From Promethearchaeota archaeon (GTDB lineage: Archaea > Asgardarchaeota > Odinarchaeia > Odinarchaeales > JBHLKK01), in the NCBI GenBank assembly GCA_048939465.1, contig JBHLPL010000035.1, positions 1 to 17,468 on the forward strand: a stretch of 17,468 nucleotides of DNA, given 5' to 3'. Below, in pieces: positions 873 to 17,468 of the stretch. The first letter of the stretch is position 1, and the number at the start of each line of letters is the position of its first letter. Below the pieces are notes generated by a model. The model was given only the letters and a program-made list of their open reading frames with translations. It searched no databases and was not told the DNA's origin. A program made the position numbers and the translations under genes.

Positions 873-1296
873 CGTGTAGAACCTCCTGATAGATTAGTTG
901 TATGCATACCTATACCAGCTAAATTGTCGAAAGCAGTATTTCAGTTTTCCTTGAGGCCAGTATTAGAAACCATAAGAGCCTTCTTTAAGAGGGGGAAGAG
1001 GATTAAATTTCATCTCTCTCATACGTGTGTGCTAAGAAACCCAGAAAACAGACACAATACAAAAAAATGTAATACAAAAACAGCTGAACAGCAACTGGAA
1101 AACTAGCCAATAAGCTACAAAAACCAGACAAGACTAGAGGAATTGAAAGACTTAAAAAAAGGAATATTCACTTGCTCATTTCTTCTAAATCTTCAGCTAG
1201 TTTCACAGGCCGTTCACGATCTACAGAGACTACTCTGCTTAGCTCGCGCTAATCCAAAATCAAAGTGCGGGGGGTGGGATTCGAACCCACGAAGAC

Positions 1297-1327
1297 CTCG
1301 TCGAAGCCTAGATTATCTATTGCTTCT
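1297..1327 (-). other. tRNA intron at a non-canonical position in the variable loop (31 nt)
   Basis: AGAAGCAATAGATAATCTAGGCTTCGACGAG. Hairpin GAAGC/GCTTC with TAGA/TCTA inside; bulges AG|A and AG|G flank a CGT/ACG helix. The boundary could shift by 1 nt. Confidence 0.8.
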
Positions 1328-1341
1328 CTACGTCACAGGAG

Positions 1342-1371
1342 TTTTGCACTCCAACCGAGATGGCTGGAATA
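1342..1371 (-). other. tRNA intron at canonical position 37/38 (30 nt)
   Basis: TATTCCAGCCATCTCGGTTGGAGTGCAAAA. Internal hairpin ATTCCAGCC/GGTTGGAGT, bulges GGT and AAC, imperfect central helix CUGA/GCAA. Confidence 0.85.
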
Positions 1372-1490
1372 CCTCAGTCCTGCCCCTTAGACCTGGCTCG
1401 GGTACCCCCGCGACAATCTCGAACTAAGTACGAATATGATTTAATCTCGGAGTACTGTTATTCAACTGGAATAATTCTTAGCATTCTCTC

Positions 1491-2126
1491 CTAAATATCT
1501 TTATCAATAGGCAAATGGATGGCGAACTCACAAGAGTCATCGCCGCTGCAAATTGACTTGAGCATCTCGATTTCTTCTATCGGCTTTTCAAGGATGCCCT
1601 CCCAAAGCTGTTTATACCATCCAGCACCACAATAGCAGAAGGTTGGAGAGACCTTTTCTCCGGCTTTGAGAAGAGATTTCATGATTGGACAGTGACAGTA
1701 ACTTAGTCGCTTCTCTTCAGCATTCTTCGCTGCTTTGACTCCTTTGGGATTGTAGGGGATTTTCGTTACATAGATGACATTTCCCTTTCGAACAGGGTAT
1801 TCATACCATGAGAGACCATGCCAGGAAGTGTCCTCATTCATAATGGGAAAGAGAGCATCAATGCTTCCCAGTTCAAGATATTTCTTCCTGAGGAACTTTA
1901 TACGCTTTTTGGGAAAGCGATCAGGGCAACTACACATCATAATGGTCTTTCGATCTTCTTCATCCACAAGAGAATCAAGGCGTTCCATTGCACCTTTAAA
2001 CCATCGAGCTCTTTCCTTTAGTGGTGAATCAGCGTTCAGTTTTTCGCTTCCTTGCATTACCTTCTTTCGAATGGTTTTTCCAACAGATCGATCGAGGTTT
2101 TCAGATAATGATTCTAACCAAGTCAT
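1491..2126 (-). CDS. DUF6144-like protein (Cys-rich C-terminus resembling V4R/ATC-hydrolase-type domains)
   Basis: ORF track 1491..2135. ATG at 2126 is preferred because AGGTG lies 6 nt upstream. Motifs CSC, YCHCP and FCYCGAGWYKQLWEGIL...GDDSCEFAI. Family assigned from memory. Confidence 0.7.
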   Translation of the reverse strand: MTWLESLSENLDRSVGKTIRKKVMQGSEKLNADSPLKERARWFKGAMERLDSLVDEEDRKTIMMCSCPDRFPKKRIKFLRKKYLELGSIDALFPIMNEDTSWHGLSWYEYPVRKGNVIYVTKIPYNPKGVKAAKNAEEKRLSYCHCPIMKSLLKAGEKVSPTFCYCGAGWYKQLWEGILEKPIEEIEMLKSICSGDDSCEFAIHLPIDKDI

Positions 2127-2487
2127 TAACAACACCTTTGAGTACAGCTTCTGGAGCTCACAAGTATCCTTAGAGTTTTTCAGAAGTCGAGAAGATACTT
2201 TTATTATTTAAGATTAACCAATTTTCTCTACGAGTTTGCCAAGTCTTTAATAACCCGTGGCGGTGTGTCAAATCTTGGACAGATGTGTGAGATGTCTAGG
2301 CATTCAGAGCCCGTCTCTCGTCATACCTAGATGATTTTTTGTCCCAGATGCACATCTTTTATTGGACTGCTCATAATGTTTAATAATCATGATGGTCCAT
2401 CTCCTCTCATCGGAGGGGGTCTTCTCATCACACCTCAGATAGTGAAAAACGTTCAAAGCATAGTGAGAGAATTCAAAAGATTGGACG

Positions 2488-3945
2488 GTGTTTATAATCA
2501 AAGAAAAATCGATTAATGCGCGAATACGCGGTGTGTTCTCGACAGCGTTATCAAGATTATTAGTTGACAATGATTTTAGGGTCACTCAGAGTTCAGACGT
2601 AATACTGAAAAGACTGGACTTAGAAGAAGAAGTTAAACCCCCCGAGCTGGAAATCTGGGACCTTCAAGGTAAACAAGGTGTATTCTTAACTGGAAGTATA
2701 GCCGCTGTTAAGAAAGCAGTCTCAATCCTAAAAGATGTATTTCTAGACGTTATAGTACGTTCTTTCATAGCTGAGATAAATGCGATTTACAAGGGAACAG
2801 TGAAGGGGGTAGATTACGAGAGAATGACGTCTTTCGTGGATTTGGGTGATTTTCGTGGTCTTCTGTCAGGAAAAATCCTGGAAGTTGGAAAGAACCTTCT
2901 TGTTAAGATCATCAGACCAGAGAAGGGCAGAAGGGGGGCAATTGTATCGGATGAGATATCAATTCCCGGGAAATTTGCGATTATAATTCCAAACGACGGC
3001 GTTAGGATTAGCAGGAGAATTATGGATGGATCATTAAGGAAAGCACTATATTCCCTTGGCAGGAATATCAAACCGGAAGGATGGGGAATACTATGGCGAA
3101 CAGCAGCAGCCTATCAGGATACGGCAGCACTTACCGAAGAAGTAAACGATCTCAAAGCGAATCTAGAGGATTTGATGCAGAAAGCCGAAGTCACGAAAAA
3201 ACCAACCAAGCTTCTTGACGGATTAACAACTATCGAAGTAGAATTTCCGGCCATTTCTAAGAAAAAGCTGGATGAGATTAGGGAAGGAGTCTCAGCAACA
3301 ATTGCAAATCACCACATGTACAAGGCCGCCGGTCTAGACTTCGCAATTGGTGTGGATCTGGCAGAAAAGCTTATTGCAAGAATTCCGAAGGAGCGGGACC
3401 TAATTAAGGATCAATTCACTGAAATCTTTAGAAGCAAGCTGCCTAAAGTAGGCGAAAAGGTAGCAATTGAACATGTTAAACTCGACGGCCGGGTTATTCA
3501 TCTCTCACCTGGATATGTGGTCGAGTGCGACGCAACGCGGAGTAATTACCTACTGAAAAGATATTTCCGGGGCGGCGGAACTTACGACGGGTTAGAAATA
3601 CCTATGGAAGACGGGGATTACGCGTTGACGAAAATCAGCGAAGGGGAGTGGGCTCTCAGGACAACATATTTCTCTGCCAATAATGAACTCAAGGGTGAGT
3701 ATTATAACATTTCTACTCCAATCGAAATATATCCTGAGAGAATCAGATATGTTGATTTGGAGGCGGATGTAATAAAATGGCCCGATGGTCAAGTGAAGAC
3801 AGTGGATTTGGAGGAATTAAGAGAAGCTACATCCACTGGTGTTATCACGCAAGCCCTTGAGGATCAGGTTGTCTCTCTCATAGAGGATTTAAGAAATAGA
3901 TTGAAAGCTTCCAAAAAAGATGATGAACACAGCATTGAAGGCTAA
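2488..3945 (+). CDS. fau-1: Probable ribonuclease FAU-1 (RNase G/E-like N-terminus plus DUF402 C-terminus)
   Basis: 485 aa. N-terminal ARIRGVFSTALSRLL, RNase E/G-like SxRI...GWGILWRTAA, and DUF402-like GEYYNISTPIEIYPERIRYVDLEADV. Confidence 0.85.
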   Translation: MFIIKEKSINARIRGVFSTALSRLLVDNDFRVTQSSDVILKRLDLEEEVKPPELEIWDLQGKQGVFLTGSIAAVKKAVSILKDVFLDVIVRSFIAEINAIYKGTVKGVDYERMTSFVDLGDFRGLLSGKILEVGKNLLVKIIRPEKGRRGAIVSDEISIPGKFAIIIPNDGVRISRRIMDGSLRKALYSLGRNIKPEGWGILWRTAAAYQDTAALTEEVNDLKANLEDLMQKAEVTKKPTKLLDGLTTIEVEFPAISKKKLDEIREGVSATIANHHMYKAAGLDFAIGVDLAEKLIARIPKERDLIKDQFTEIFRSKLPKVGEKVAIEHVKLDGRVIHLSPGYVVECDATRSNYLLKRYFRGGGTYDGLEIPMEDGDYALTKISEGEWALRTTYFSANNELKGEYYNISTPIEIYPERIRYVDLEADVIKWPDGQVKTVDLEELREATSTGVITQALEDQVVSLIEDLRNRLKASKKDDEHSIEG

Positions 3946-4070
3946 TGAGAAGGCTAGAAGGCTGTCAGCGCCAACAATGTGTTAGAATCCTTGAATCAAA
4001 ACTTTATCACACTTCGCAAAGGTTTAAGTACTTTTGGAGGAAAAGACGGGTTGTTAGGTGGGTGAAAAAG

Positions 4071-4634
4071 GTGTCATCATTTCCACCCCTCGAGCATATT
4101 GCTAAAAAACGAAAAAAGCTCGGATTAACACAAAAGCAGCTGGCTAAGTTGGCAGGAATTAGTCAGTCTCTGATTGCAAAAATAGAATCTAAGAAGATCA
4201 GCCCGTCTTATTTAAAGGTTAAGGCAATCTTCGATGTTTTGGATAGTCTTGAGAGAAAGAATGATCTTCGTGCCAGAGGCATAATGAGCAGCAATGTTGT
4301 TGGCATCGATAAAGATGCACCGGTTTCCAAAGCCATACAGCTAATGCGAGAGCATGATTTTTCTCAGATTCCGGTTTTTGACGGAAGGAAAGTTGTGGGG
4401 AGTATCGAAGAGAAAACGATTCTGAATCAAATTACCAAAATGGGCAATCCAATGGAATTGGTGAACATGCCCATCGAGAGAATAATGGATGAATCATTTC
4501 CCCTTATTGACGAGGGTACGCCGTTGTCGATAATTTTGGCCCTTTTTAAATACTGTTCAGCAGTTCTAGTCTCACGAAAGGGAAGTATAATTGGGATAAT
4601 AACCAAGGCAGATTTGTTCAAAACAGTCGCTTAA
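4071..4634 (+). CDS. Cro/C1-type HTH plus tandem CBS-domain transcriptional regulator
   Basis: In-frame GTG at 4071 after SD-like GGTGGGTGA gives 187 aa. HTH RKKLGLTQKQLAKLAGISQSLIAKIE is followed by a CBS pair (FSQIPV...VVGSI; IIGIITKADL). The track's 3945 start adds an implausible N-terminal extension. Confidence 0.88.
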   Translation: MSSFPPLEHIAKKRKKLGLTQKQLAKLAGISQSLIAKIESKKISPSYLKVKAIFDVLDSLERKNDLRARGIMSSNVVGIDKDAPVSKAIQLMREHDFSQIPVFDGRKVVGSIEEKTILNQITKMGNPMELVNMPIERIMDESFPLIDEGTPLSIILALFKYCSAVLVSRKGSIIGIITKADLFKTVA

Positions 4635-4788
4635 AAGATTCCTGAAAAGAGAAGTCGAGAGCGGAATGCTCGGAATAGCGGCAACGGTGGTGGTATCGGT
4701 GCTCCTAGTATTGGCACTCCAGAGAGACAAGAAAGACAAAGCCAAAGAGGGGACAATATTGCCATAGCCAACTGAAGGGTGTGATTCT

Positions 4789-5856
4789 GTGAAGACCCCC
4801 AATCATCCTCAAGAGACGAAGCTTCCTGTTCTAGTCCTATCGATCCTTTTAGCGTTTGTCTTTACAGTGGCCCTGACTTTTGCCACAATAGAGATCCCCC
4901 GAATACTGTCAATACTGTTGGCAGAGTGGGGGGGTCCGGATGTTAACCCAGGAACGCCTGCCGCGGAGGAATTCATGAAAATAGCAAGGCCGATAGGCTA
5001 CGCTTGCCTTGCGATCGTCATAGTCTTGATAATAATGGGCTTCATTGTAAAGAGAAAGAATTTATCGACGTTGGGAGCCGTATTCTTCTTCTTGCCAACT
5101 TTCGGCTACTTTGCAGCTTCTATGTTTTTTCTTGCCGGCTTAGGAATACTGCGGATCACGTGGACGCCATTCTGGGAAATCAATCTCCTCAAACTAGGAG
5201 ACATCGTCTTCCTGCCATATATGATTCTAACTTATTTATTTGCTCTCGTAGGCCTAGATATTAGGGATGTTCTGGTACTTTCAGTCATGGGGTTAGGCTT
5301 CTTCATATTCCTACTAGGCACAATAGCGTGGTTTTACGGAAAAGTAGAGAAAAAAGAGACAGTCAGCTTCTGGATATACAAGTATTCAAGACACCCTCAG
5401 TACCTCGGTTACATCGTCTGGAGTTACGGAGTCATGTTACATGCTTCTCTAATTCCATTCCCCTTTGGAGGTTCAAATCCCGGAGCTAGCCTGCCTTGGT
5501 TGATCTCGACACTTATCGTGGTTTGCATTGCGTTGGCTGAGGAAAATACTATGAGTAAAAAAGACAGGGACACCTATCTGAAATACAAAGAAAGCGTTCC
5601 GTTCATGTTCCCTGTCCCCAAGTTCGTAACCTCCTTAGTAACGGCTCCAATCAGAATCATGTTTGGAAAAAACTGGCCAGAAAACGGAAAGGAGATAGTC
5701 GGCACTTTCACGATCTATTTTCTAATATTCGGCTTGTTGTCACTACCGTTTGCCGTCCTGAACTGGCCTCCAGGCCAGTGGTGGGGATTGTGGCCCTACA
5801 ATGTATGGCCATTCAGTACCCAACCAGGCCTTGGCCCGATCTTCATCCCAAGCTGA
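4789..5856 (+). CDS. Isoprenylcysteine carboxyl methyltransferase (ICMT/Ste14/PEMT)-like integral membrane protein
   Basis: 355 aa with many hydrophobic segments. Family motif IYKYSRHPQYLG followed by EE...Y..Y...VP. Confidence 0.75.
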   Translation: MKTPNHPQETKLPVLVLSILLAFVFTVALTFATIEIPRILSILLAEWGGPDVNPGTPAAEEFMKIARPIGYACLAIVIVLIIMGFIVKRKNLSTLGAVFFFLPTFGYFAASMFFLAGLGILRITWTPFWEINLLKLGDIVFLPYMILTYLFALVGLDIRDVLVLSVMGLGFFIFLLGTIAWFYGKVEKKETVSFWIYKYSRHPQYLGYIVWSYGVMLHASLIPFPFGGSNPGASLPWLISTLIVVCIALAEENTMSKKDRDTYLKYKESVPFMFPVPKFVTSLVTAPIRIMFGKNWPENGKEIVGTFTIYFLIFGLLSLPFAVLNWPPGQWWGLWPYNVWPFSTQPGLGPIFIPS

Positions 5857-5924
5857 TTGTGTAGAAGCGAACTGAAATGCGCCTTAAGGGTCTTCTTACA
5901 TGAAAATTGATCCTGTTTACTGCC

Positions 5925-5959
5925 GTGAACCACTCCACCCTTTCGGATGGGGTCTTCCT
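5925..5959 (-). mobile_element. Isolated IS200/IS605-type right-end remnant
   Basis: Minus strand AGGAAGACCCCATCC-GAAA-GGGTGGAGTGGTTCAC: subterminal hairpin, GAAG at its foot, TCAC terminus. Closely similar to 13438-13469. Confidence 0.7.
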
Positions 5960-5988
5960 ACGGAGAGGAAGATGAAATATATTGAGAA

Positions 5989-6711
5989 TTACTTCCGTTT
6001 TCGTCTGCCGGTTCTCTTGGCAGCGATGAGACCAACTTTTGCTCCAGGGGGCGCATTCCTGGATACCGTGTAGGATTTGCCAGGTCCTTGTTTCGCCCCG
6101 CCCCCGTGAGGATGACTAGCAGCAACCATAGCTACGCCTCGGACGGTAGGATATTTCCAGCCTTTTGAGCGGGCTAAATGATGTTTTTTGCCCGCTTTTA
6201 AGAAGGGTTTTTCAGGACGTCCTCCACCGGCTACTACTCCAATCGTGGCTCTACAGGCCGGATCGAACGGCTTCATTGCACCAGAGGGCAGTTTTATGAT
6301 AACCTTATCCTGAGCGCGGGAGATCAGCGTAGCGTAAGTACCAGAAGACCGTACAAGTTTTCCTCCGTCCGATGGCGTGCGCTCGATGTTGAACACTGGG
6401 GTTCCCTCAGGTATGTATTCCAGAGGCAGTGAGTTTCCGGGAGTTATCGGTACATTTGAACCGTATGATATTGTCTGACCTACTGCGATCCCTTCAGGGG
6501 CGATGATTAACTGTTCTATGCCATTTTCAAATTTTACTCTCGCAAGAGGGGCTCCTCGTCCGGGATCGTGTAATAGCTCAATTACGACACCAGAAATAGC
6601 TTCATCCTTTTTTGTCAATAGATGTTTGGCTTCACCCTTTCGTTTGTGCGATGGTGCACGAAACTGCCTACTGCCACGTCCTCTTCTTTGGGCCAGAATG
6701 CGTTTACCCAT
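5989..6711 (-). CDS. rpl2: 50S ribosomal protein uL2
   Basis: MGKRILAQRRGRG, HDPGRGAPLA, RSSGTYA, HPHGGG motifs; SD-like GAGGAG upstream. Confidence 0.98.
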   Translation of the reverse strand: MGKRILAQRRGRGSRQFRAPSHKRKGEAKHLLTKKDEAISGVVIELLHDPGRGAPLARVKFENGIEQLIIAPEGIAVGQTISYGSNVPITPGNSLPLEYIPEGTPVFNIERTPSDGGKLVRSSGTYATLISRAQDKVIIKLPSGAMKPFDPACRATIGVVAGGGRPEKPFLKAGKKHHLARSKGWKYPTVRGVAMVAASHPHGGGAKQGPGKSYTVSRNAPPGAKVGLIAAKRTGRRKRK

Positions 6712-6739
6712 ATCTTCATTCTCCTCTAATCATTAATCA

Positions 6740-7000
6740 TTAGAACATACCTAATTTGGTAGCTACATCAGCAGCACTATGTTCTGAAGTAAGGCGAACA
6801 TATGCCTTTTTCTTTCCATTTGGAAGGATAAGCGTATTTACCTTTTCTACTTCAACCTCATAAAGCAGTTCGACAGCCCGCCTAATTGTTATTCGATTTG
6901 CTTCACGAGCTACCATAAAAGTTATTTTGTTCTCTTTTTCGATTAATTCAAGAGCTGTTTCAGTTGTTACAGGCCGAATAATGATTTTATGCGGGTCCAT
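6740..7000 (-). CDS. rpl23: 50S ribosomal protein uL23
   Basis: IIIRPVTTE...KKAYVRL; 86 aa; lies between uL4 and uL2. Confidence 0.97.
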   Translation of the reverse strand: MDPHKIIIRPVTTETALELIEKENKITFMVAREANRITIRRAVELLYEVEVEKVNTLILPNGKKKAYVRLTSEHSAADVATKLGMF

Positions 7001-7024
7001 AGAGTTTCGCCCTCCTATCGTATC

Positions 7025-7810
7025 CTAGAGAGGTAGTTCATTCAGTTGCTGAATAGCGGATTTGGTCCAAACAGTTAACCTTCCAGCATGAATGCCCGGA
7101 GCAAGTAGCTCGGCATTTAGATTCTTAACATTCACAATATCTAGTCCTGGGTGATTTGCAGCAGCTTTGAGAATGCCTTGATCATCTGTTATAACCAGTA
7201 ACGGTCCTTTGGGTCTTTTGTATTTTCTTCCCCGCATTTTTCCTTTTCCCGCTCTTATTTTTCTCCCCTGCTTAGCCCGTTCAACGTCAGGCCAGACACC
7301 AAGACTTTGAAGAACATCCTTGGTTTCTTTTGTGGTTGCCAAGCCCTGGATTTCATCAACCACAACCAGCGGAAACTCAGGAACATCTTCAATCGCGTGC
7401 CCTCTGTCTCTAACCAGATCAATATTGGCTGTAGCAGCAATAGCTGAGCGAATCGCCAAACGCCTTTCTTTCTTGTTGATCTTCTCACGCAGTCTTTTTT
7501 CCGCCCTTGGAGGATGAGCGACCCTTCCTCCAACTGTCATCGGCGCGAAAGCTGCTCGCTGAGCCGCGCGATATCCGTGACCCTTCGTACGAGGGACCCT
7601 AGCTATCCCCCTACCAGTTCCCAAATTTTCGGCCGTAGTCCTTTTTCCAGCCAATTTGTTGGTTCCGTGGGGTTGGTAGCGGGCCGACTGCGCAGCTATG
7701 ACAGCCCTTTTGATCATGTCGGGCCTATAAGGAGTCTGAAAAACTTCCGGCAGTTTTATCTTTCCTTCTTTCTTCCCCTTCAAAGTGTGAACATTAGCAT
7801 TTTTGACCAT
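7025..7810 (-). CDS. rpl4: 50S ribosomal protein uL4
   Basis: YRPDMIKRAV, GRGIARVPR, RAGKGKMRGR, LLAPG...GRLTVWT motifs; GGAGG SD. Confidence 0.98.
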   Translation of the reverse strand: MVKNANVHTLKGKKEGKIKLPEVFQTPYRPDMIKRAVIAAQSARYQPHGTNKLAGKRTTAENLGTGRGIARVPRTKGHGYRAAQRAAFAPMTVGGRVAHPPRAEKRLREKINKKERRLAIRSAIAATANIDLVRDRGHAIEDVPEFPLVVVDEIQGLATTKETKDVLQSLGVWPDVERAKQGRKIRAGKGKMRGRKYKRPKGPLLVITDDQGILKAAANHPGLDIVNVKNLNAELLAPGIHAGRLTVWTKSAIQQLNELPL

Positions 7811-7822
7811 TTCAATCTCCTC

Positions 7823-8827
7823 CTACCTGCCCTGCTTGCTGGAAGTAGAGACTATGCTGATTTCAGGTGGTTTTTCGGCAACCTCCGCTGTTGGCCGAAT
7901 CGGGTATCTCAACCGAATGAGTCGCTTCACCTGCCCAGGAAGCGTCCCTTCAATAATGACATAAGGTCCCTTTATTATACCATACCGTAGAAAACCACCA
8001 GCAGGAGAAATCTCCCTGCCATCTTCTCCAATCTTTAGGATGCGTTTGTTGACCTCTACACGTTGATGGTAACCCATTTGCCCTGCTCTTGGCACCGAGT
8101 ATTTAACTCTCGCAGGATGCCACGGACCTATGGCTCCGACTCCTCGCTTGGTCTTGCGTGACTTAGGGGGAAGAAGCCTGATTCCCCATCGTTTTACAGG
8201 TCCTTGAAAACCCTTTCCTTTGGTTACCGCGATAGCATCAACGTAATTGCCCTCTTTCAAAACGTCCCTTATCTTCACTTCTTTTCCCAGTAAAGTCTTG
8301 ATGTATTCAAATCGTTCTTCAACCGACCCTCCCCCGACCATGTTTTCAAATACTGCAGGTTTTTTGCTTGGTACAGCTGCTAGACGAGGCTGAGTATGCA
8401 TTATTACTCTAATCTCTTCGAGTCCATTAAGATTCTCGCTCATCTTTTCCAAAGCACCATCACTGTCGTACTCTTTTGGCACAGGAAAAGTTCGTTTAAG
8501 ATCAGCGCTCAGCTCTGGTGCCCAAGCCTCTCCCACGGTCTTCAAGCCATATTGGGTTCTTTTGTATCCTTTGATTCCGCAGACAGTTAAGGGTGGAGAG
8601 TCAAGAACGGTAACCGCATATATCAATTCGTGGCCATAATACGGGCTTTGAGGACGTTCATCCACCAGTACAATGTGTGTCATACCAGCCTTATACCCAG
8701 CGAAACCGAGTATAGTGGGCTCCCCGTCGTACTCCGGCCAATTTCGAATACGTCCTACAGGTCTTGCGGCCCTACCTCTAGGCAAGTAGGCTAGACTTCC
8801 ACTTTTGGGGCGGTGTTTTCGAGGCAT
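7823..8827 (-). CDS. rpl3: 50S ribosomal protein uL3
   Basis: GSLAYLPR, GFAGYKAGMTH, TKGKGFQGPVKRWG, PRAGQMGYHQR motifs; GGAGGT SD. Confidence 0.98.
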   Translation of the reverse strand: MPRKHRPKSGSLAYLPRGRAARPVGRIRNWPEYDGEPTILGFAGYKAGMTHIVLVDERPQSPYYGHELIYAVTVLDSPPLTVCGIKGYKRTQYGLKTVGEAWAPELSADLKRTFPVPKEYDSDGALEKMSENLNGLEEIRVIMHTQPRLAAVPSKKPAVFENMVGGGSVEERFEYIKTLLGKEVKIRDVLKEGNYVDAIAVTKGKGFQGPVKRWGIRLLPPKSRKTKRGVGAIGPWHPARVKYSVPRAGQMGYHQRVEVNKRILKIGEDGREISPAGGFLRYGIIKGPYVIIEGTLPGQVKRLIRLRYPIRPTAEVAEKPPEISIVSTSSKQGR

Positions 8828-9079
8828 TCATAGACCTCCTTTTTGTGAAGCGTCATACTACAAAGATGGTTTGGCCATAATTTAGTCACTAAGGGCTTTT
8901 CACAATAACAGATTTAGTACGTGAGGGTTTCAAATGTAGGAACACCTTATTAACATTATGCCTAGGCACCACAACTTAGCACATCTTTTCTCCATCTCTC
9001 AAGCGAACATTCTTTAAAGATTTTATGAGTCCTTATATTATCCATATCCGATAAAGAACTCCCAGGGTGAGAGAAGTTG

Positions 9080-9925
9080 ATGGAAAAGATCACAGTGATG
9101 TTGCCCTCTTCCTTGATTATTGATTCACCAGATCTTAGATCAAAAACTGAGAAAATCGGACACATCGGGCGTGTTTTGTCTATATATCGAATTACGAGAA
9201 TAATGCTTTACTACACTCATGAAAGCAACCATAAAAAGAACGCTCGTTTGATTTCAAGTCTGTTGGAGTATATGGAGTGTCCACAGTACTTGAGAAAGAG
9301 GTTATTCCCGTTGAGACCTGAGCTAAAGTACGTAGGCATACTTCCCCCGCTTAGGACCCCACATCATCCGACAGAGAGTAGATTAGAAGAGCTTAATGAT
9401 GGGGAATTACGGGAAGGTGTGGTTGTGAAGTCAAATAGGAATCTTTCTTTGGTAGATGTGGGCGTTGAAAGAGCAATTATGTTGAAAGAGGCAAACCTAC
9501 CTGCTGGAAAACGTGTTACCGTCAGAATAACCAGAAATGAGCAAATTCATGCAAACTACGTAAAACCGAGCACTATTGGGGAATACTGGGGATATTCAGT
9601 AAGTACCACTGGGCGATTCTTAGGAAGAAGTCTGAGAAAGATCCCATCCGATATATTAATCACAACGTCGCGGAGGGGGGTCAAAATCAATGATGTTGCT
9701 AAGGAGCTTATGAATAGCTGGCGCAAGTCTCGTAGGGTTTTATTGGTTTTTGGGGCTCCGCATCAAGGCCTAGACGAGATTTTAGGAGAAGAAGGTATTG
9801 AATTAAAGGAAGTAGCAGATTTTAATATCAACACAATTCCCAGACAAGGTACAAAGACAGTGCGAACTGAGGAGGCCGTTCAGTCTACCCTGGCAGTTTT
9901 GGACCTGCTTTCTGACATTTTTTAA
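9080..9925 (+). CDS. SPOUT-class RNA methyltransferase (COG2106/DUF171, putative uridine N3 methyltransferase)
   Basis: YMECPQYLRK, GILPPLRTPHH, FGAPHQGL, NTIPRQGTKTVRTEEA motifs. ATG at 9080 (TTG at 9077 is the alternative); GGGTGA SD. Confidence 0.9.
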   Translation: MEKITVMLPSSLIIDSPDLRSKTEKIGHIGRVLSIYRITRIMLYYTHESNHKKNARLISSLLEYMECPQYLRKRLFPLRPELKYVGILPPLRTPHHPTESRLEELNDGELREGVVVKSNRNLSLVDVGVERAIMLKEANLPAGKRVTVRITRNEQIHANYVKPSTIGEYWGYSVSTTGRFLGRSLRKIPSDILITTSRRGVKINDVAKELMNSWRKSRRVLLVFGAPHQGLDEILGEEGIELKEVADFNINTIPRQGTKTVRTEEAVQSTLAVLDLLSDIF

Positions 9926-9948
9926 GTGTTTTCTTACGAGAATATCAT

Positions 9949-10671
9949 ATGAAACAAATAAGGATTATCGTGGATAAAAGAGAACGTGTCTCAGGTATTC
10001 CAGAGTTTCTTAAGCAAGATGATATTCGGGTCTCGTTTAGGCAATTGTCTGTTGGGGATTACGTGCTTTCAGATAGATGTGCTATTGAACGCAAATCTGC
10101 TTCCGACTTCGTCTCTTCCATGTTCAGTGGAAGGCTTTTTGATCAAGTGCAGCGTTTATCTGGAGCCTATGAACTTCCCTTGATCATAATAGAAGGAGAC
10201 TTCTTCAACTCTATTCAAGTATCTGGGAGGGAGAAAGCGATATTGGGTGCAATAGCGAAAATATCAATAGAAACGCCTACAAGATTTCTGTTTACAGAAT
10301 CAAGGCAGCAGACAGCCAAACTACTTTCAACACTTGCCAATCACGAACAGATATTCCATGGATGGAGCCCGATAGTGCGGAAAAGTCCGAGACAACTAAC
10401 CGAAGATGAGATGAAGCTGTTCATCATAACAAGTTTGCCGAATGTCGGATCAAAGCTGGCTTACAGATTACTCAGGAGTTTTGGTTCTGTCAAAGGAATC
10501 ATCAATGCAACAAGTGCGGAGCTTTCCCGCGTAGAAGGCATTGGAAGAAAAAAGGCACATGCGATTGCCAAATTGATCAAAGCCCCATACAGGTTAGACA
10601 GAGACGAGGTAAAGCAGATAAAGCTCGGAGAATACGATCAGGATAAGCCAAACAAGAAATCGTATTTATAA
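9949..10671 (+). CDS. xpf: Stand-alone XPF/ERCC4 structure-specific nuclease with HhH2 domain
   Basis: IIVDKRE, GDY...IERKS..DF nuclease core, HhH motifs LPNVGSKLA and VEGIGRKKA, and a C-terminal PIP-box-like QIKLGEY (10615-10635). Confidence 0.92.
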   Translation: MKQIRIIVDKRERVSGIPEFLKQDDIRVSFRQLSVGDYVLSDRCAIERKSASDFVSSMFSGRLFDQVQRLSGAYELPLIIIEGDFFNSIQVSGREKAILGAIAKISIETPTRFLFTESRQQTAKLLSTLANHEQIFHGWSPIVRKSPRQLTEDEMKLFIITSLPNVGSKLAYRLLRSFGSVKGIINATSAELSRVEGIGRKKAHAIAKLIKAPYRLDRDEVKQIKLGEYDQDKPNKKSYL

Positions 10672-10706
10672 CAAAGTTGATGTGACTACCAAAGAGGGGG
10701 TAATGA

Positions 10707-12930
10707 ATGTCCAAAACAAAGCAGCTTGCTGAAGAAATTAGCAAGTTGATGGGTAGAAAGGAAAACATCCGAAATGTTGGAATAATAGCACATATAGATC
10801 ATGGGAAGACCACATTATCAGATTCACTTCTTGCTGCATCAGGCTTGCTCTCACCTTCATTAGCAGGAAGGATTCGCGCTTTGGATTATCTCGACGAAGA
10901 GCAGGAGCGCGGAAAGGTCTACGAGAACCTCTCGTTGCCCCGAAATAACAATAAAGTCCGCCAATATTTCGCTTCTGCACAGACTGGACAATACACGGTA
11001 CATAATTAACCTAGTTGATACACCAGGACATGTAGATTTCACTGGAAAGGTTACACGCGCACTTAGGATTATAGATGGAGCATTGATTCTAGTAGATGCT
11101 GTTGAAGGAGTAATGGTGCAGACAGAAACTGTAACACGACAGGCGCTGCAAGAACTTGTAAGACCGGTTCTGTTCATTAACAAAATAGATCGACTAATTA
11201 GAGAGCTAAGACTAGCTTCTGAGCAAATAGAAAAAAGACTTACGCAAATCATCAGTAGTTTTAACACCCTGATAGACATGTACGCAGACGAGGAATATAG
11301 AGACGCATGGAAAGTGAGTGCGTCTGGGGGATCTGTTGCATTTGGATCTGCCCTTCATAGATGGGGGTTCACAGTTCCGACGATTTCTGAACAGGACTTG
11401 AAATTCCAAGACATAATTCGATTTTATGAGAAGAACGAGGTAGATAAACTGAGTGAGATATTACCTGTGCACAGAGCAATATTCAGCATGATTGTTTACA
11501 ACTTGCCAAATCCGATAGAAGCTCAGAGATACAGGATTCCAAGAATATGGCAGGGGGCCCTTGAATCTGAAATTGGAAGTGCGATGATGAACTGTGATGA
11601 AAAGGGTCCTTCTGTTATATATGTAAACAAAGTTTTGGTGGATCCTCACGCAAAATTAATTTCCGCGGGGAGGATTTTTTCAGGAACTGTAAAGGAAGGA
11701 AGTGAAGTATACCTAGTATCTGCTGGGAAAAAGCAGAGAATACAGCAAGTCAGTATGTATATGGGGGACAGAAGAGAGGTAGTCAAAGAGGTAAGTGCAG
11801 GCAATATTGTGGGACTGCTGGGCCCAGAAACGGTGATAGGAGAGACTATTGTAGAAGCAGATTATTGGGATAAGATAGTTCCGCTTGAAGAAATTAGATA
11901 TGTCTCAGAGCCAGTGGTTACAGTAGCCCTAGAAGCGGAACTATTGAAAGATCTTCCTAGACTGGTTAAAGCGATGGAGGAACTCTCGGTTCAGGACCCT
12001 AATCTCTCAGTGATAATAAACCCTGAAACTGGCGAGTATTTGCTGTCGGGAATGGGGGAACTTCATCTGGAAATAGCAATCAAAGACATCCAAAAGACAG
12101 GGATTAGATGTCTGGCATCCACACCCACGGTGGTATATCGTGAAACTGTAAAGAAAGCAGGAAAGGTGATTACTGAGAAGAGTCTGGACGAAAAAGAGCG
12201 GGTAACAGTTTTGGTGGAGCCAATTGATGAGAAAACAGCGTCTCTTTTTGCCCAAGGAATAATATCGCCAACCAAAGATTGCAGGTATATCTCAAAGGTT
12301 CTCCGTGATAAAGCAGATTGGTCCGAAGAGGAGACGAAGAAGATATTGTCTCTCAACAAGTATGGCAACTTCCTCATGGCTAGGACAGACTTCGAAGGTC
12401 TTCCTCAGGAAACAAAGGAAATAATAGTCTCTGAAATGAACCGAATATGTTCTTCGGGGCCACTTAGCGAGGAGCCACTTAGAGGCGTCAAGATTGAATT
12501 AGTAGATCTGGAGACAAGCGGATTAACGCAGCAAAGTTCGGCCGGATCAGCTATCCTGATTAGAAATGCCACAGCTGATTCATTTCTGTCTGCCTCGCCC
12601 ACCCTGTTAGAACCAATCTATAAGATTCAAGTAAATATCCCCTCAGAATACATAGGGGTCATCACAAATTTGATGTTACAAAGAAGAGGACAGATACAAG
12701 GTATGAAACAAACGAACCATATTGCGACTATTATGGGGAGAATACCAGTAGCAGAAAGTTTCGGATTGGCAAATGAATTGAGGTCCAAAACGTCCGGTCA
12801 CGCATTTTGGCAGACGCAGTTTGAAACTTGGGAAGAAATATCCCCAAAGCTCCTGTCAAAAACAGTTGCCAGCATAAGAAGACGGAAGGGATTGCCACCA
12901 CCCACAGAAGCAGACAACAGATATTTTTGA
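10707..12930 (+). CDS. fusA: Elongation factor 2 homolog (probable divergent paralog), join(10707..10914,10946..12930), 730 aa after removing a 31-nt intron
   Basis: G1 AHIDHGKTT lies in the first ORF. G3 DTPGH, G4 NKID, SGMGELHL, GPLSEEP and ELRSKTSG lie in the next frame. Removing 31 nt rebuilds EQERGITIKSANISL and gives 2193 nt = 731 codons. Confidence 0.92.
10915..10945 (+). other. Putative BHB-type (splicing-endonuclease-dependent) intron in the EF-2 mRNA
   Basis: AGGTCTACGAGAACCTCTCGTTGCCCCGAAA. Bulge AA|A (10913-15), bulge AA|T (10944-46), central helix GCGG/CCGA (3 of 4 Watson-Crick), inner stem GGT..ACGAGA-ACC-TCTCGT..GCC. Coordinates 10913-10943 and 10914-10944 give the same spliced product; 10915-10945 fits BHB geometry best. 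Confidence 0.8.
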
Positions 12931-13004
12931 TGCGAGGTGCGGGATTCGAACCCGCGTTCCTAGCTTGGGAGGCTAAGGTCCTAACCAGACTAGACTAACC
13001 TCGC
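12931..13004 (-). tRNA. tRNA-Gly(CCC), intronless
   Basis: Minus strand GCGAGGT/ACCTCGC acceptor plus A, anticodon arm TTAGC-CTCCCAA-GCTAG (CCC at 12969-12967), T arm GCGGG-TTCGAAT-CCCGC; 74 nt. Confidence 0.96.
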
Positions 13005-13029
13005 AGGTCCAGTAGGATTATGTTTAACT

Positions 13030-13037
13030 TTTTTAAA
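13030..13037 (-). promoter_or_regulatory. TATA box of tRNA-Gly
   Basis: TTTAAAAA on the minus strand about 26 nt upstream of the tRNA 5' end. Confidence 0.55.
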
Positions 13038-13081
13038 GGATTATTGGTTTATCACCTATTCTTTTGGTTTGAGAACCAATG

Positions 13082-13089
13082 TTTTTATG
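13082..13089 (+). promoter_or_regulatory. TATA-like box of tRNA-Arg
   Basis: TTTTTATG about 25 nt upstream of the tRNA 5' end at 13113. Confidence 0.45.
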
Positions 13090-13112
13090 CAGATTCGTGA
13101 TAATATCTCAGT

Positions 13113-13218
13113 GGGCCCGTAGCGTAGTATGGATAACGCGCATGGCTTCGGATATGAGGCATTATATTCCATAGTTGAAACCATGAGATCGCAGGTTCGA
13201 ATCCTGCCGGGCCCGCCA
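13113..13218 (+). tRNA. tRNA-Arg(TCG) with a 28-nt intron at 37/38 (13152-13179); CCA encoded
   Basis: Acceptor GGGCCCG/CGGGCCC, then G and CCA. D stem GCGT/ACGC, anticodon stem CATGG/CCATG, anticodon TCG at 13148-13150, T arm GCAGG-TTCGAAT-CCTGC. Confidence 0.95.
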
Positions 13219-13259
13219 ATTTTTGAGTGTAGATATCCAGAAGCGTTTATCTTCTTCTC

Positions 13260-13469
13260 CACAAGAAGACTTCATCCAGAAGGGCGGAGACGAATTGCGA
13301 GGAGTTTAAATACTTGCTTTCACGATAGCCTTAAGGAATTGAGACGGGGTACCACTCGCCAATTCGCAAACACAAGGTTTCAGGGCAGGAACTGCCCGTG
13401 GAGCCTGTGAGACGTCCCGCTGGGGAATGGATGAAACAGGAAGCTTCATCCGAAAGGGGGGTAGTTCAC
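13260..13469 (+). mobile_element. Non-autonomous miniature IS200/IS605-family derivative (left-end hairpin, internal TATA box, tnpB-tail/omegaRNA-like segment, right end)
   Basis: Hairpin CTTCATCC-AGAA-GGGCGGAG (13270-89) and hairpin CTTCATCC-GAAA-GGGGGG (13444-61) with GAAG foot and TCAC end. GGGCAG-GAA-CTGCCC stem at 13383-97. One frame reads RAGTARGAC, like TnpB C-terminal tails. No transposase ORF. Left boundary uncertain by about 10 nt. Confidence 0.72.
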
Positions 13470-13479
13470 GAATACTAGA

Positions 13480-13899
13480 TTGTTAAAAACTGCGGCTCGC
13501 GTCTGGTTGATGGAAATCCTTGTTTCATGCTTCAATTTCTTTGTGCTCATGAACCTTATTTACGAACCGAGATGGGGCGAGCTGGTGGCACATCAAATCG
13601 GGATGTCTACTCGAATCGTCTACATCTTCATCTTTGCATATTTCTTGTTGCGATTCGTCAAGGAGTATGAAACTAAAGATTTGATTCATGCTGGGATTTT
13701 GTGGTTGGTTCTGACACTGCTATTCGAATGGGGAGGCAGTTTTGTAATAGGACGTTCAATCGAAGAAATTCTGATTGGTTGGAACATATTCGCTGGGTAT
13801 ATGTGGCCTTACGTGTTGCTGACCTATCTGTTATCAAACCTCATTGTTGGTACAATTTTGTACCCTGGTAAGAAGAGGTCAAGCCGGATGCTCAACTGA
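13480..13899 (+). CDS. Hypothetical small membrane protein (about 4 hydrophobic segments)
   Basis: 139-aa ORF with alternating hydrophobic helices; family not recognised. Confidence 0.78.
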   Translation: MLKTAARVWLMEILVSCFNFFVLMNLIYEPRWGELVAHQIGMSTRIVYIFIFAYFLLRFVKEYETKDLIHAGILWLVLTLLFEWGGSFVIGRSIEEILIGWNIFAGYMWPYVLLTYLLSNLIVGTILYPGKKRSSRMLN

Positions 13900-14188
13900 G
13901 GTAAATATCTATTTTGGACACAGCCCCCTAAGATATCCGAATAAGGACGACTAAATTGAGACTTCTGGTCATTGTGTGAGATAAGGGATTCGAGCCCCTC
14001 AACGGCAAACCGAAAGGATTATTCACGGCACATTCAAGCAAACATGTGTAACGGGGGGAATTCAAACCTAGATTTGAGTCAGTTCGGATCCGCCGACTTC
14101 TTATTGTAATAACTATATCTGCTTGAAAGACTAGTTGAAGATTAATATATTTCATCGACTAATTGCTAAGAATCGATGAGGGATTGGT

Positions 14189-16015
14189 ATGAGTCAAGTT
14201 GGGAAGGCTCCCACATTGTACGGAACTTTATTCCGACTTCCGTCCATGGGGCAACTGCTGATTATGATGGTTTCGAGTAGTTTGCTTACGGGAGTCATAG
14301 TGCAGATTGCTTTAGGAGCTTCCAATTTTCTATTTCTTGGATTGGTTGAAGGGAGTATAGTCTTCCTTGTCCCGTCAATTGTCTCTGCAGTAATTTCATA
14401 CATATTGATACATAAAGAAACCAAAATGCTGATTTTTCGGCATATGGTCGCGATATCTACATCAGCAACAATCTTATGGAATTCCATTTACATTCTTAGC
14501 GCAATATTGTCCTGGGCATTTCAAATAAACTACGTAATTGTTGACGGTTTTTTCATAGGTATGGCCCTTGCTCTTACCGTTAGGTTGCTCACATATTTCG
14601 CTCTGAGTTTTTCCGGGCCAGTCCCCGATGCAATTTCTTCCATAATTCAGCCAGGATTCAGTTTCTTGTTGGCCTATTTTTTGCCGATCACCCCCCTCGG
14701 AATTCTTCTGGGCGATTTTGCTTATTGGGTGCCTAGATTTGCTATTTCCACCATATTGATGACTTCAGCCAGTTTTGGATACATGTATCTCACAGATAGA
14801 CCCCTAAAGAAAACTGTAGGAATAGGTGGAATCTCCTTTTTGAGAGCGTTCTTATCAGAATGGGTAGTCAGCGACAGCAGTAAGATCGAGCAATACTTTG
14901 AGCGACTGGGTAAGAAGATGGATCTGCCGATATCAACAATACTCTTTAAGACGATGGACAACCGATCAAAGGCCATAACGGTAGTACCATATATTCATCC
15001 GGGACCGTTTAGAAACGTCGGTAGCAGCAATCTTCCCTCCGTCCTAATAGATGATCTGGAAAGCAAATTTGGGGCAACTACATTGGTTTTTCATGGGCCT
15101 TCAACCCATGCACATAACCTAGTTAGATCTCAGGAATGTCAAAAGGTTCTGGAGAAGGTCGAAAAGATGATAGAAGCGAATAATAACGAATTTACGCTAG
15201 CGACTCCTTTTGTTGAAGCCAAAGGTTCTGGCTGTCAAGTTAGTTGTCAGCTATTTGGTGATTTTGGTCTTTTGATAATTACATCTGCACCAGAGGATAC
15301 GGAAGACATAAAACATCAGACTGCACAACAAATAACCAAAGCGGCAAGGGAGCTTGGCATAGAACATGTCGCCATTATTGACGCACATAATGCCAAGAGC
15401 CCAGAAATGGCCAAAGAACCCATCGCCAGCGGCTCGGAAGAGGAAAAGGAATTGATTCGCGTAGTCAAAAGAGCAATATCAAAGAGCTTGACGACAAAGA
15501 AAGCACAGTTGAAGATAGGGGTTGCAAGAATTCGTCCTTCAGATGGCAGTAGACAAAAGGGCATAGGGGACAGTGGAATCATGGCGCAGATTCTGGAAGT
15601 TGGCGGACAACGTGCAGCTTATATTTTGATTGATGGAAATAATATGATCAAGGGGTTGAGGGAGAGAATACTAGAATCGTTGAAAGAAGTAGGAATTGAG
15701 AAAGCGGAGATCATGACCACAGACACGCATTCGGTTGATGCCACAACCCTTGAAGCCGGGAACGCTGTAGGAAAGAGCTATGATATTAACAAGATAGTCG
15801 AGCACGTTAAGGTAGCAACGGAACAGGCTATCGAGGACCTAGAAGTTGTGAAGGGATATGTCAGCGTCGATAAAGTGAAAGATCTCACAGTAGCTGGAGA
15901 AATAATTAGCGAGATTATTGAATCCACCGCAGTCTCTTGGAAGACTGCAAAAAGAGCATTCCCACTAATAGGAATTGCTTTTCTTCTGATACCTGTTATA
16001 TTCATGTTTTTGTGA
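14189..16015 (+). CDS. DUF2070 family membrane protein (COG3356)
   Basis: 608 aa: multi-TM N-terminus, soluble C-terminal domain with HPGPFRNVGSSNLP, HGPSTH, IDAHN, DGNNM, TTDTHSV, and a C-terminal TM helix. Confidence 0.85.
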   Translation: MSQVGKAPTLYGTLFRLPSMGQLLIMMVSSSLLTGVIVQIALGASNFLFLGLVEGSIVFLVPSIVSAVISYILIHKETKMLIFRHMVAISTSATILWNSIYILSAILSWAFQINYVIVDGFFIGMALALTVRLLTYFALSFSGPVPDAISSIIQPGFSFLLAYFLPITPLGILLGDFAYWVPRFAISTILMTSASFGYMYLTDRPLKKTVGIGGISFLRAFLSEWVVSDSSKIEQYFERLGKKMDLPISTILFKTMDNRSKAITVVPYIHPGPFRNVGSSNLPSVLIDDLESKFGATTLVFHGPSTHAHNLVRSQECQKVLEKVEKMIEANNNEFTLATPFVEAKGSGCQVSCQLFGDFGLLIITSAPEDTEDIKHQTAQQITKAARELGIEHVAIIDAHNAKSPEMAKEPIASGSEEEKELIRVVKRAISKSLTTKKAQLKIGVARIRPSDGSRQKGIGDSGIMAQILEVGGQRAAYILIDGNNMIKGLRERILESLKEVGIEKAEIMTTDTHSVDATTLEAGNAVGKSYDINKIVEHVKVATEQAIEDLEVVKGYVSVDKVKDLTVAGEIISEIIESTAVSWKTAKRAFPLIGIAFLLIPVIFMFL

Positions 16016-16052
16016 GAGAAATCGAGGTTTTCCACTGTGGATTAGGATTGTC

Positions 16053-16385
16053 CTAGAGGCGGACAAAATAATTTTTGATTTCATCCCAAACCTCTTTTCT
16101 CAATCGCAAAATATCGTGGATTTCAACTTCTTCAGCTTCTTTGACCACATTTCTGAGTTGAATAACACTACCGACAGCCACAACATTTTCTATATCAACG
16201 GGAAATTCTACATCAAGACCTTTTATGATCAGTTCTGCCTTAAAATTAGGAATGCTAACTCTTAAGCTGCGAACAATTCCAATACGTCTGGCCTTGCTAT
16301 CAACAACCTCTTTTCCTAGGACGTATCCCGGCATTCTCAGCTCATAGAATTCGGTTTCTAGTTTTAGGGACTCTTCCTCTGTCAA
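16053..16385 (-). CDS. PRC-barrel-like domain protein
   Basis: LGKEVVDSKARRIGIVRSL...VAVGSVIQL resembles the PRC-barrel pattern. TTG start with GGAGT SD. Confidence 0.65.
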   Translation of the reverse strand: MTEEESLKLETEFYELRMPGYVLGKEVVDSKARRIGIVRSLRVSIPNFKAELIIKGLDVEFPVDIENVVAVGSVIQLRNVVKEAEEVEIHDILRLRKEVWDEIKNYFVRL

Positions 16386-16597
16386 TTTTGACTACTCCGA
16401 ACTACTTTTTGTTCTTCCAACGCGTCTTAAACATTTCCTATTAGAACTAAAGGCATATATTTAATATTAATTTGTCTAGGGGATATGGGTTTCTTGTTAA
16501 TATAGAATTATAGAATATAGGATAGTCAGTAATTTAGAGTCGGGCAGATATAGTATCGAAGGATAAAGCTTGAATTATGCCACATGGAGAAATGTGA

Positions 16598-17468
16598 ATG
16601 AGCTCGGAACAGACCGATCATCCTCTGGTCAAAGCAGACGCAGTAGAAAGAAGGTTATATCAGGAGGTCATTGTTGGAACGGGTGTGGCGCATAATAGCC
16701 TGGTAGTCCTACCAACAGGTCTCGGAAAAACGATCATTGCAGCATTGATTGCAGCGCATCGTCTCCACAAGTATTCTAACTCGAAATGTGTTTTTCTTGC
16801 ACCGACTCGTCCTCTCGTTCTTCAACATCGTAGGACATTTAGAAAGATGTTAGATGTGCCCGAAAGCGAATTGGTTGCTTTTACAGGGTCAATTAAACCA
16901 TTAAAACGAATTCAGCTGTGGAAAGAGAGTAGAATAATCTTCATGACGCCTCAGATACTGGAGAATGACCTCATTGTTGGTAGATATCCAATAGAAGATG
17001 TCTCACTGGTTGTTTTTGACGAAGCTCACAGGGCAGTCGGGAGCTATCCCTACACGTTCATCGCAGAACAGTACCTAAAGCGGGCCAAGAATCCAAGAAT
17101 CCTCGGATTAACTGCGTCCCCAGGTTCATCTAAGACGAAAATAAAGGAAGTATGCGAGAATCTGTTTATCGAAAATGTTGAAGTGCGTACGGAGAAAGAT
17201 TCCGATGTGGCGCCTTACCTTGTACCCATTAAACTCGATTGGAAACTGATTGATCTGCCTCCAGAGCTTTCAACTATCAAAAAAGAATTGGAGGAATTGC
17301 TTAGAGAGAGGCTAAAACTGCTAAAAAGTTATGGATTTGTCAAATCATATGATGTAAAGAAAGTTTCCAGAAAAGACCTGATCGGATTACGGGCAAAAAT
17401 CCAAAAAGAGCTTGGTTCCACTTGTTTAACCAAAGATCAGGTCAAAGAGCTGACAAAGATAGTTTTGA
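16598..17468 (+). CDS. hef: Hef/FANCM (Mph1)-like SF2 DEAH helicase (partial, runs off the right edge)
   Basis: Not in the ORF track because it has no stop in the window. From ATG 16598: MSSEQTDHPLVKADAVERRLYQ...VVLPTGLGKT...FLAPTRPLVLQH...MTPQILENDL...VFDEAHRAVGSYPY...LGLTASPG. Confidence 0.92.
   Translation, partial: MSSEQTDHPLVKADAVERRLYQEVIVGTGVAHNSLVVLPTGLGKTIIAALIAAHRLHKYSNSKCVFLAPTRPLVLQHRRTFRKMLDVPESELVAFTGSIKPLKRIQLWKESRIIFMTPQILENDLIVGRYPIEDVSLVVFDEAHRAVGSYPYTFIAEQYLKRAKNPRILGLTASPGSSKTKIKEVCENLFIENVEVRTEKDSDVAPYLVPIKLDWKLIDLPPELSTIKKELEELLRERLKLLKSYGFVKSYDVKKVSRKDLIGLRAKIQKELGSTCLTKDQVKELTKIVL

Follow-up and report, generated by a model that had tools for sequence, protein, structure and literature searches.

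The gene for an elongation factor of the EF-2 family in an Odinarchaeales genome is interrupted by 31 nucleotides (nt) that appear to be an intron of the type known from transfer RNA (tRNA) genes. The gene lies on contig C68 (JBHLPL010000035.1, positions 1 to 17,468; this whole 17,468-nt stretch is called the window below), which is part of a 1.96-Mb metagenome-assembled genome (MAG; label G000) that is 91% complete. The product is predicted to be aEF-2p, the diphthamide-less paralog of EF-2. With a probability of about 85%, the insert is an intron of the bulge-helix-bulge (BHB) family in its HBh' form, which the splicing endonuclease EndA would remove from the aEF-2p pre-mRNA. This interpretation is supported by conservation of the insert at the same codon in 16 genomes, by covariation in the predicted RNA fold, by the selection acting on each exon, and by the EndA and RtcB genes that the genome encodes. 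The same four lines of evidence support the core of an earlier interpretation made from the letters of the window (the sequence-only reading), which had proposed a tRNA-type intron at switch I of an EF-2 paralog.

Unspliced, the open reading frame (ORF) on the + strand (10707..11009) codes for 100 aa only, with the P-loop AHIDHGKTT inside, and ends at the stop codon 11007-11009. A second frame, open from the insert on and closed by the stop codon 12928-12930, encodes ITIKSANISL, followed by DTPGH, NKID and the remainder of an EF-2-like protein. The Pfam matches are divided in the same manner, with positions 1-54 of GTP_EFTU on the first piece, and positions 55-177 together with D2, EFG_III, EFG_IV and EFG_C on the second. 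The 31 nt can be deleted in three registers (10913-10943, 10914-10944, 10915-10945), each of which gives an identical 730-aa ORF reading EEQERG-ITIKS across the junction; registers with any other start place E or K there. Excision joins 10707-10914 to 10946-12930 and restores RGITIK. The predicted exon 1 (10707..10914, +) comprises Met1 to Gly69 and the first base of the Ile70 codon, and exon 2 (10946..12930, +) runs from the rest of this codon to the stop, covering switch I to domain V with the diphthamide loop replaced. The spliced product retains G1 (AHIDHGKTT), G2 (RGITI), G3 (DTPGH) and G4 (NKID), and outside the insert the ORF carries no further lesion. Re-translation agreed throughout with the sequence-only reading, both in its frame logic and coordinates, including the stop at 11007-11009 after 100 aa, and in its statement that the G motifs and the rest of the 730-aa protein are intact. 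The insert is single-copy; a repeat or a miniature inverted-repeat transposable element was rejected because the genome holds no second copy.

The description of the gene as an EF-2 paralog can be made more specific. The spliced protein would keep all five EF-2 domains and the G motifs, and has lost the His-containing HxDxxHRG loop in which diphthamide is formed in EF-2; the aligned segment of a 52%-identical Asgard EF-2 (G040) reads HEDPIHRG. A genome of the same genus (G001) holds a second EF-2, 35% identical, with HVDPAHTT. This R-to-T variant, HxDxxHT, characterizes the aEF-2 of paralog-bearing Asgards, and aEF-2p is the EF-2 paralog of Asgard archaea and Korarchaeota that lack dph genes (Narrowe 2018, PMC6143161). 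Because the diphthamide loop is lost and an aEF-2 with HVDPAHTT is present in G001, the interrupted gene is, on sequence grounds, aEF-2p. The partner aEF-2 was not found in the 91%-complete assembly studied here. The gene resembles published aEF-2p in its five domains, intact G motifs and lost diphthamide loop, and differs in its interruption, since Narrowe 2018 (PMC6143161) makes no mention of any interruption.

The insert was compared with orthologs from two families: f1, with 3 genomes (the genus of the window, including G001 and G002), and f12, with 13 genomes that are readable on both sides of the site. Family f12 is separate from that of the window, and its kinship is "same phylum" only. 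An insert is found at the identical Gly/Ile codon position in all 16 genomes. It is 31 nt long throughout, apart from one f12 genome with 30 nt and an in-frame TGA, and its excision gives the exact in-frame RG-ITIK junction in 16/16. The alignment of orthologs that the sequence-only reading had proposed as a check thus shows both the shared codon position and compensatory changes in the stem. The insert is missing at the same site in other Asgard families, including f2 of the window's own order. A careful maximum-likelihood tree (29 rows) placed the intron-bearing genes in two fully supported clades with an unresolved backbone, and a single clade was not rejected by the approximately unbiased test (p = 0.30). 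Both one gain followed by losses and two gains at the same site are possible histories of the putative intron. Near residue 430 the f12 genes seemed to be interrupted once more, but this region proved to be one open frame with a divergent stretch and the same open-frame length, and was dropped as an intron.

For the RNA fold, the 16 inserts, each flanked by 14 exonic nt at both ends (alignment A1), were submitted to RNAalifold with no constraints. In the consensus, exon 1 is joined to the 3' end of the insert by four pairs, next to which come a 3-nt bulge and an inner helix of four pairs. In the window (all features on the + strand) the central helix H would be formed by the exonic 5' strand GCGG at 10909..10912 and the intronic 3' strand CCGA at 10940..10943. 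It is followed by the 5' bulge AAA at 10913..10915 and by the inner helix h', GGU 10916-10918 paired with GCC 10937-10939 (whole element 10916..10939), which closes an apical hairpin, 10921-10926/10930-10935, with its loop at 10927-10929. The 3' cut-site triplet AAU occupies 10944..10946, and no outer helix comes after it. This geometry, HBh' in the nomenclature of Marck and Grosjean, is the local minimum-free-energy (MFE) fold of the window sequence, and the same architecture is the single-sequence MFE in 6/6 homologs. It is unlikely to be due to chance, since only 0.9% of random 31-nt sites in this genome, evaluated in three registers, give an HBh' fold at least as good.

Under this helix-bulge-helix-hairpin model 87% of the alignment cells are paired, versus 75% in shuffled alignments, of which 0/500 reach 87%. 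Sliding the partners by 1-3 columns leaves only 38-48% of the cells paired and lowers the covariation score from 0.48 to 0.10-0.16; nine pairs change on both sides. The central helix (columns 10-13/41-44 of A1) pairs in 95% of cells, and its second pair (11-43), in which the exonic partner is the third base of an Arg codon, covaries (AU 8, GC 4, CG 3, GU 1). The inner helix h' has 3-4 pairs, also with changes on both sides: 17-40 (CG 13, GC 3), 18-39 (GC 12, GU 3, AU 1) and 19-38 (UA 10, UG 3, CG 2, GC 1). The AAA bulge is invariant in 16/16 sequences. The bulge starts with the last base of the Gly codon, which is GGA in 14/14 intron-bearing genes versus 26/66 intron-less ones. An 81-nt MFE fold that pairs GCGGA with a downstream exonic UCCGC was discarded as a chance structure, as it is not conserved in G001 or f12.

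The positions of the cuts can be predicted as well. In each 3-nt bulge, archaeal EndA is known to cut behind the second base, a rule reportedly going back to Marck and Grosjean in 2003 and to EndA-RNA structures. A recent preprint states that there is one cut inside each bulge, and nothing more exact (bioRxiv 10.64898/2026.10.13.758758). The rule places the cuts in the window at 10914|10915 and 10945|10946, and the intron at 10915..10945 (+), to which 10913-10943 and 10914-10944 are sequence-equivalent; here the three excision registers are indistinguishable, each giving the junction GGA-AUA (G-I). Two relatives, G127 and G036, are more informative in this respect. Their 3' triplet is AGU, so that a cut after the second base yields AUA (Ile) and a plain deletion yields GUA (Val). 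Among 78 intron-less homologs the residue at the junction is Ile in 69, Met in 9 and Val in 0. Since only the second-base cut gives Ile in G127 and G036, and Val never occurs in the 78 homologs, these two sequences provide a small but independent confirmation of the EndA cut mechanism. They fit only the rule that the sequence-only reading had applied in predicting the in-frame product GGA-ATA-ACA (G-I-T).

Both exons are under purifying selection. In comparisons with G001 and G002, where dS is 0.5-0.8, exon 1 has a ratio of nonsynonymous to synonymous substitution rates (dN/dS) of 0.08 and exon 2 one of 0.12-0.15. Despite this divergence the intron is identical to the two same-genus copies at 28/31 and 30/31 positions. 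In the exon-2 frame the earliest possible start codon is at 11083, and the 46 codons that precede it after the insert encode G2 and G3. These codons show 93-95% protein identity within the genus; as they are conserved and have no start, they must be read by the ribosome as an extension of exon 1. Sequencing error, mis-assembly or gene decay would be expected to show up as just such a frame-breaking insert in a MAG contig, and failure to find the canonical aEF-2 copy in the 91%-complete assembly might be added on the side of a pseudogene or an artefact. However, dN/dS is about 0.1 for both exons, the insert is conserved in 16 genomes, and the ORF contains no other lesion. Moreover, contigs from three metagenome studies, which are separate from the likely source sample, cover the insert with 0 gaps and without any joint that skips it. 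For example, a 267-nt contig of study X6 spans 10863-11080, two pieces from X4 cover 10856-10937 and 10908-11061, and one from X8 covers 10889-10949. The concern over mis-assembly has thus been answered by three independent studies, and a pseudogene or artefact is effectively refuted.

The ribosome could in principle solve the problem during translation, either by a +1 frameshift at GGA-A or by a hop over the 31 nt, with no splicing at all. The exon-2 frame is in fact open through the insert in this genome, and a hairpin follows the GGA codon. The take-off site of the translational bypass in phage T4 gene 60 likewise consists of a GGA codon and then a hairpin. Recoding is nevertheless very improbable when the relatives are considered. 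In 7/16 genomes (G016, G134, G133, G128, G135, G124 and G122) the exon-2 frame stops within the insert, which argues against the frameshift; in none of the 16 sequences does a GGN codon stand directly before exon 2 as a landing site for a take-off GGA, which argues against the bypass. No conserved slippery site is found, and reading through would place 10 non-conserved residues in switch I. Furthermore, the covarying pairs connect exon 1 with the 3'-terminal part of the insert, an arrangement that fits a BHB substrate but not a frameshift stimulator.

A further alternative is that the structured insert serves for cleavage or stalling in a split or negatively regulated gene, for instance one where a cut by EndA leads to decay, and that the two parts are never joined. 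Cleavage without splicing has a precedent in eukaryotes, where TSEN cleaves some mRNAs for decay (PMC10485636), and in aEF-2p it is the ligation of the exons that is deduced from sequence. This alternative is still improbable, if somewhat less so than recoding. It leaves unaccounted for the purifying selection on exon 2 in a frame that is restored only by joining, with its first 46 codons startless, as well as the insert length held at 31 nt (30 in one genome) and the exact RG-ITIK junction in 16/16. RtcB, the ligase that would be needed for joining, is present.

The genome encodes two EndA paralogs (in the regions C90:9287-9538 and C139:31376-31636), each with the N-terminal and the catalytic Pfam domains, and two RtcB genes. 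The closest PDB chains are 3p1z_B and its relatives for one EndA paralog, which we take to be catalytic subunits of crenarchaeal two-subunit enzymes, and 1a79_A for the other. Two paralogs would fit an (alpha-beta)2 EndA, which according to PMC5829648 and the preprint bioRxiv 10.64898/2026.10.13.758758 is the broad-specificity type that handles relaxed motifs. One of the RtcB genes (C31:2961-5708, -) is a 973-aa open frame with about 1.4 kb between the parts matched by Pfam, probably an intein.

Splicing of the aEF-2p transcript might then proceed as follows. The exonic GCGG would pair with a 4-base stretch close to the intron's 3' end, followed by the AAA bulge and the intron-internal helix with its hairpin. 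The host EndA, probably an (alpha-beta)2 enzyme built from the two paralogs, would cut after the second bulge base (10914|10915) and at the symmetric site two bases beyond the central helix (10945|10946). Ligation of the exons by RtcB would create GGA-AUA-ACA, restoring switch I (RGITIK) and the 730-aa frame, and the 31-nt intron would be released, probably as a circle. From unspliced mRNA only a 100-aa P-loop fragment could be made.

Several points weigh against an EndA-spliced intron. Splicing itself is deduced from comparative data only. The 16 sequences represent only two lineages, and kin are not independent. In no lineage do columns before 10 pair with columns after 47, so that in the modelled fold the motif is of the HBh' subclass and not a full canonical hBHBh'; the relaxed form without an outer exon-exon helix had already been recognized in the sequence-only reading. 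With no outer helix and a central helix of only three standard pairs plus a G.A, the 3' site is not a true bulge, and a broad-specificity enzyme would be required. The (alpha-beta)2 assembly of the host EndA and its broad specificity are probable, and are deduced solely from the presence of two paralogs. The GCGG/CCGA helix of the sequence-only reading is present, together with its bulges and inner hairpin, but it is less regular than was assumed, with three standard pairs and an outermost G.A in the genus of the window, versus 4/4 pairs in f12. Relaxed BHB-like motifs often arise by chance, as reported in a preprint (bioRxiv 10.64898/2026.10.13.758758); thus the motif alone is weak, and the case rests on the comparative data.

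Similar mini-introns, whose removal restores conserved motifs, are predicted for no fewer than four further genes of this genome, namely aIF5B, kae1, pyrG and ahcY, which also speaks for an intron in aEF-2p. In aIF5B, an insert of 29 nt (C69:18515-18543 = L114:1394-1422, +) separates GGI from TQHIG in switch I and forms a full hBHBh' motif, with the outer helix GGG/CCC, the central helix GGUA/UGCU, and the bulges UAA and AGA. It is also 29 nt long in the relatives G001 and G002, where compensatory changes are seen; the same site carries 33 nt in family f15 (G022, G032) and 30 nt in a Baldrarchaeum MAG (G012), and no insert in 24 other relatives. The kae1 gene has 25 nt (C69:30130-30154, -) in a canonical hBHBh' with an 8-bp outer helix, and excision restores GPG|LGPCLR. 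In pyrG, 31 nt (C116:17805-17835, -) split SG|IGKG, and in ahcY, 32 nt (C118:346-377, -) with an 11-bp inner stem split WDFD|NIYG. All three of these genes are split, and 4/4 central pairs form in each. The ahcY gene has further breaks besides the 32-nt insert. A scan for a motif plus an open frame around known junctions produced many false hits, one of which would delete conserved SAHH residues.

The EF-2 genes of other Asgard families contain BHB-like inserts at other sites of the G domain. Inserts of 29 nt occur at DTPGHV|DF in G021 and G011 (L008:1479-1507, +; L004:3378-3406, -), with a 4-bp central helix identified by eye. The P-loop is interrupted at HGK|TT in G023 and G033 by 31 and 32 nt (L016:1363-1393, +; L019:1362-1393, +), again with a 4-bp central helix by eye, and roughly 217 nt are inserted at DTPG|H in G031 (L009:1816-2032, -). 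An EF-2 family gene of family f3 (G007, L010:3469-4209, -; also in G018) carries in its P-loop (GK|C...HN|TT) a mini-intein of about 167 aa, which is in frame and matches Pfam Intein_splicing with E = 4.7e-28.

The sequence-only reading had suggested that splicing is an on/off switch by which synthesis of the EF-2 paralog is tied to the capacity for tRNA splicing. This suggestion found no support, as aIF5B, kae1, pyrG and ahcY carry mini-introns of the same type. Their spread over several protein genes speaks against a switch reserved for aEF-2p, and the aEF-2p intron is best seen as one of many in the lineage and not as an EF-2p-specific device. Splicing capacity would necessarily limit the synthesis of all proteins whose genes bear mini-introns. 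Splicing by EndA and RtcB might even be a general, obligatory step of mRNA maturation in this lineage, acting on dozens of protein genes with BHB mini-introns of 25-33 nt, but we regard this extension as rather doubtful. If it were true, several translational GTPases would be hit at G-domain motifs (switch I of aEF-2p and aIF5B, the P-loop and G3 in other Asgard EF-2), and such hits would point either to shared introns of great age or to an insertion process that favours certain sites. General splicing would then also let the cell control the production of translation factors and of housekeeping enzymes globally, and this in the prokaryotic group nearest to eukaryotes.

The published cases of such mRNA splicing that were found are the cbf5 coding sequence (PMC2738675) and the 5' untranslated region (5'UTR) of HVO_1309 (PMC7714728; PMC10485636), and according to reviews more archaeal cases are probably still to be found (PMC10485636). 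The full-text literature search returned nothing on introns in EF-2 or aEF-2p, which are not mentioned by Narrowe 2018 (PMC6143161) either, and the papers on Asgard tRNA introns (PMC11291895; bioRxiv 10.64898/2026.10.13.758758) report no introns in protein genes. The cbf5 intron of Crenarchaeota (Watanabe 2002; Yokobori 2009, PMC2738675) is a close parallel, being a short intron in a coding sequence with a relaxed BHB-like fold, in hosts with a two-subunit EndA; it is present in some lineages and absent from others, a pattern suggestive of gain or precise loss. In contrast to aEF-2p, a translational-GTPase paralog of an Asgard archaeon, cbf5 encodes a pseudouridine synthase of Thermoproteota; its splicing was demonstrated by reverse transcription PCR and in vitro cleavage, whereas that of aEF-2p is deduced by comparison, and the aEF-2p intron has several counterparts in other protein genes of its genome. 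HVO_1309 of Haloferax volcanii (PMC7714728; PMC10485636) likewise has an mRNA, and not a tRNA or rRNA, as the substrate of the archaeal splicing endonuclease, but there the intron lies in the 5'UTR and interrupts no frame, the enzyme is of the alpha2 type and the BHB is canonical. The non-canonical tRNA introns of Asgard archaea (PMC11291895; bioRxiv 10.64898/2026.10.13.758758) share with the aEF-2p insert the size range, the HBh'/hBHBh' geometry, the host group and the presumed enzymes (two EndA paralogs and RtcB), but these papers cover tRNA genes only.

The aEF-2p intron would thus be a new, well-supported case of endonuclease-type mRNA splicing in Asgard archaea; only one other archaeal coding sequence, cbf5, has published splicing of this kind. 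New in this case are the Asgard host, from the closest prokaryotic relatives of eukaryotes, the conservation in two families with covariation, and at least four companion genes. Gene callers will report aEF-2p and similar genes as truncated or as pseudogenes, and such miscalled genes distort phylogenies of EF-2 and aEF-2p, estimates of completeness based on marker genes, and metabolic reconstructions of these lineages. Archaea are believed to couple transcription with translation, which raises the question of how the cells avoid translating unspliced mRNA. The split genes also provide a concrete and testable set of substrates for the Asgard EndA. In the XBP1/HAC1 mRNA of eukaryotes, IRE1 cuts two stem-loop sites, RtcB or Trl1 joins the exons, and removal of the short intron changes the frame and the protein. 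The resemblance in the use of a protein endonuclease with a tRNA ligase, in the short intron and in the change of frame is one of analogy and not of family membership; the endonuclease is IRE1 and not EndA, and the process is regulated by stress, whereas no such regulation has been shown for the aEF-2p intron.

The tRNA genes of the host are themselves rich in introns, which adds to the case for an intron of this type in aEF-2p. ARAGORN found 15 tRNAs in the whole genome, 12 of them with an intron; because only 15 were found and 12 contain introns, this suggests that many heavily interrupted tRNA genes were missed by the program. One intron-containing tRNA gene (13113-13215, +; Rfam 58.9 bits) is located 180 nt downstream of aEF-2p and has an intron of roughly 28-31 nt in the anticodon loop. 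The ARAGORN call as a selenocysteine tRNA looks wrong, and the anticodon loop reads CUUCGGA. When this tRNA was used as a BHB control, its fold was a long rod without clean 3-nt bulges, and its anticodon call is doubtful. On the opposite strand, a tRNA-Gly(CCC) gene (12929-13005, -) abuts the stop codon of aEF-2p. The upstream neighbours at 9949-10671 (+), 9077-9925 (+) and 2488-3945 (+) are ordinary archaeal housekeeping genes, none of them apparently interrupted; the neighbouring products are, in this order, an XPF/Hef-like nuclease with ERCC4 and HhH domains, a methyltransferase of the Methyltrn_RNA_3 family, and a protein with DUF402 and RNase_E_G domains.

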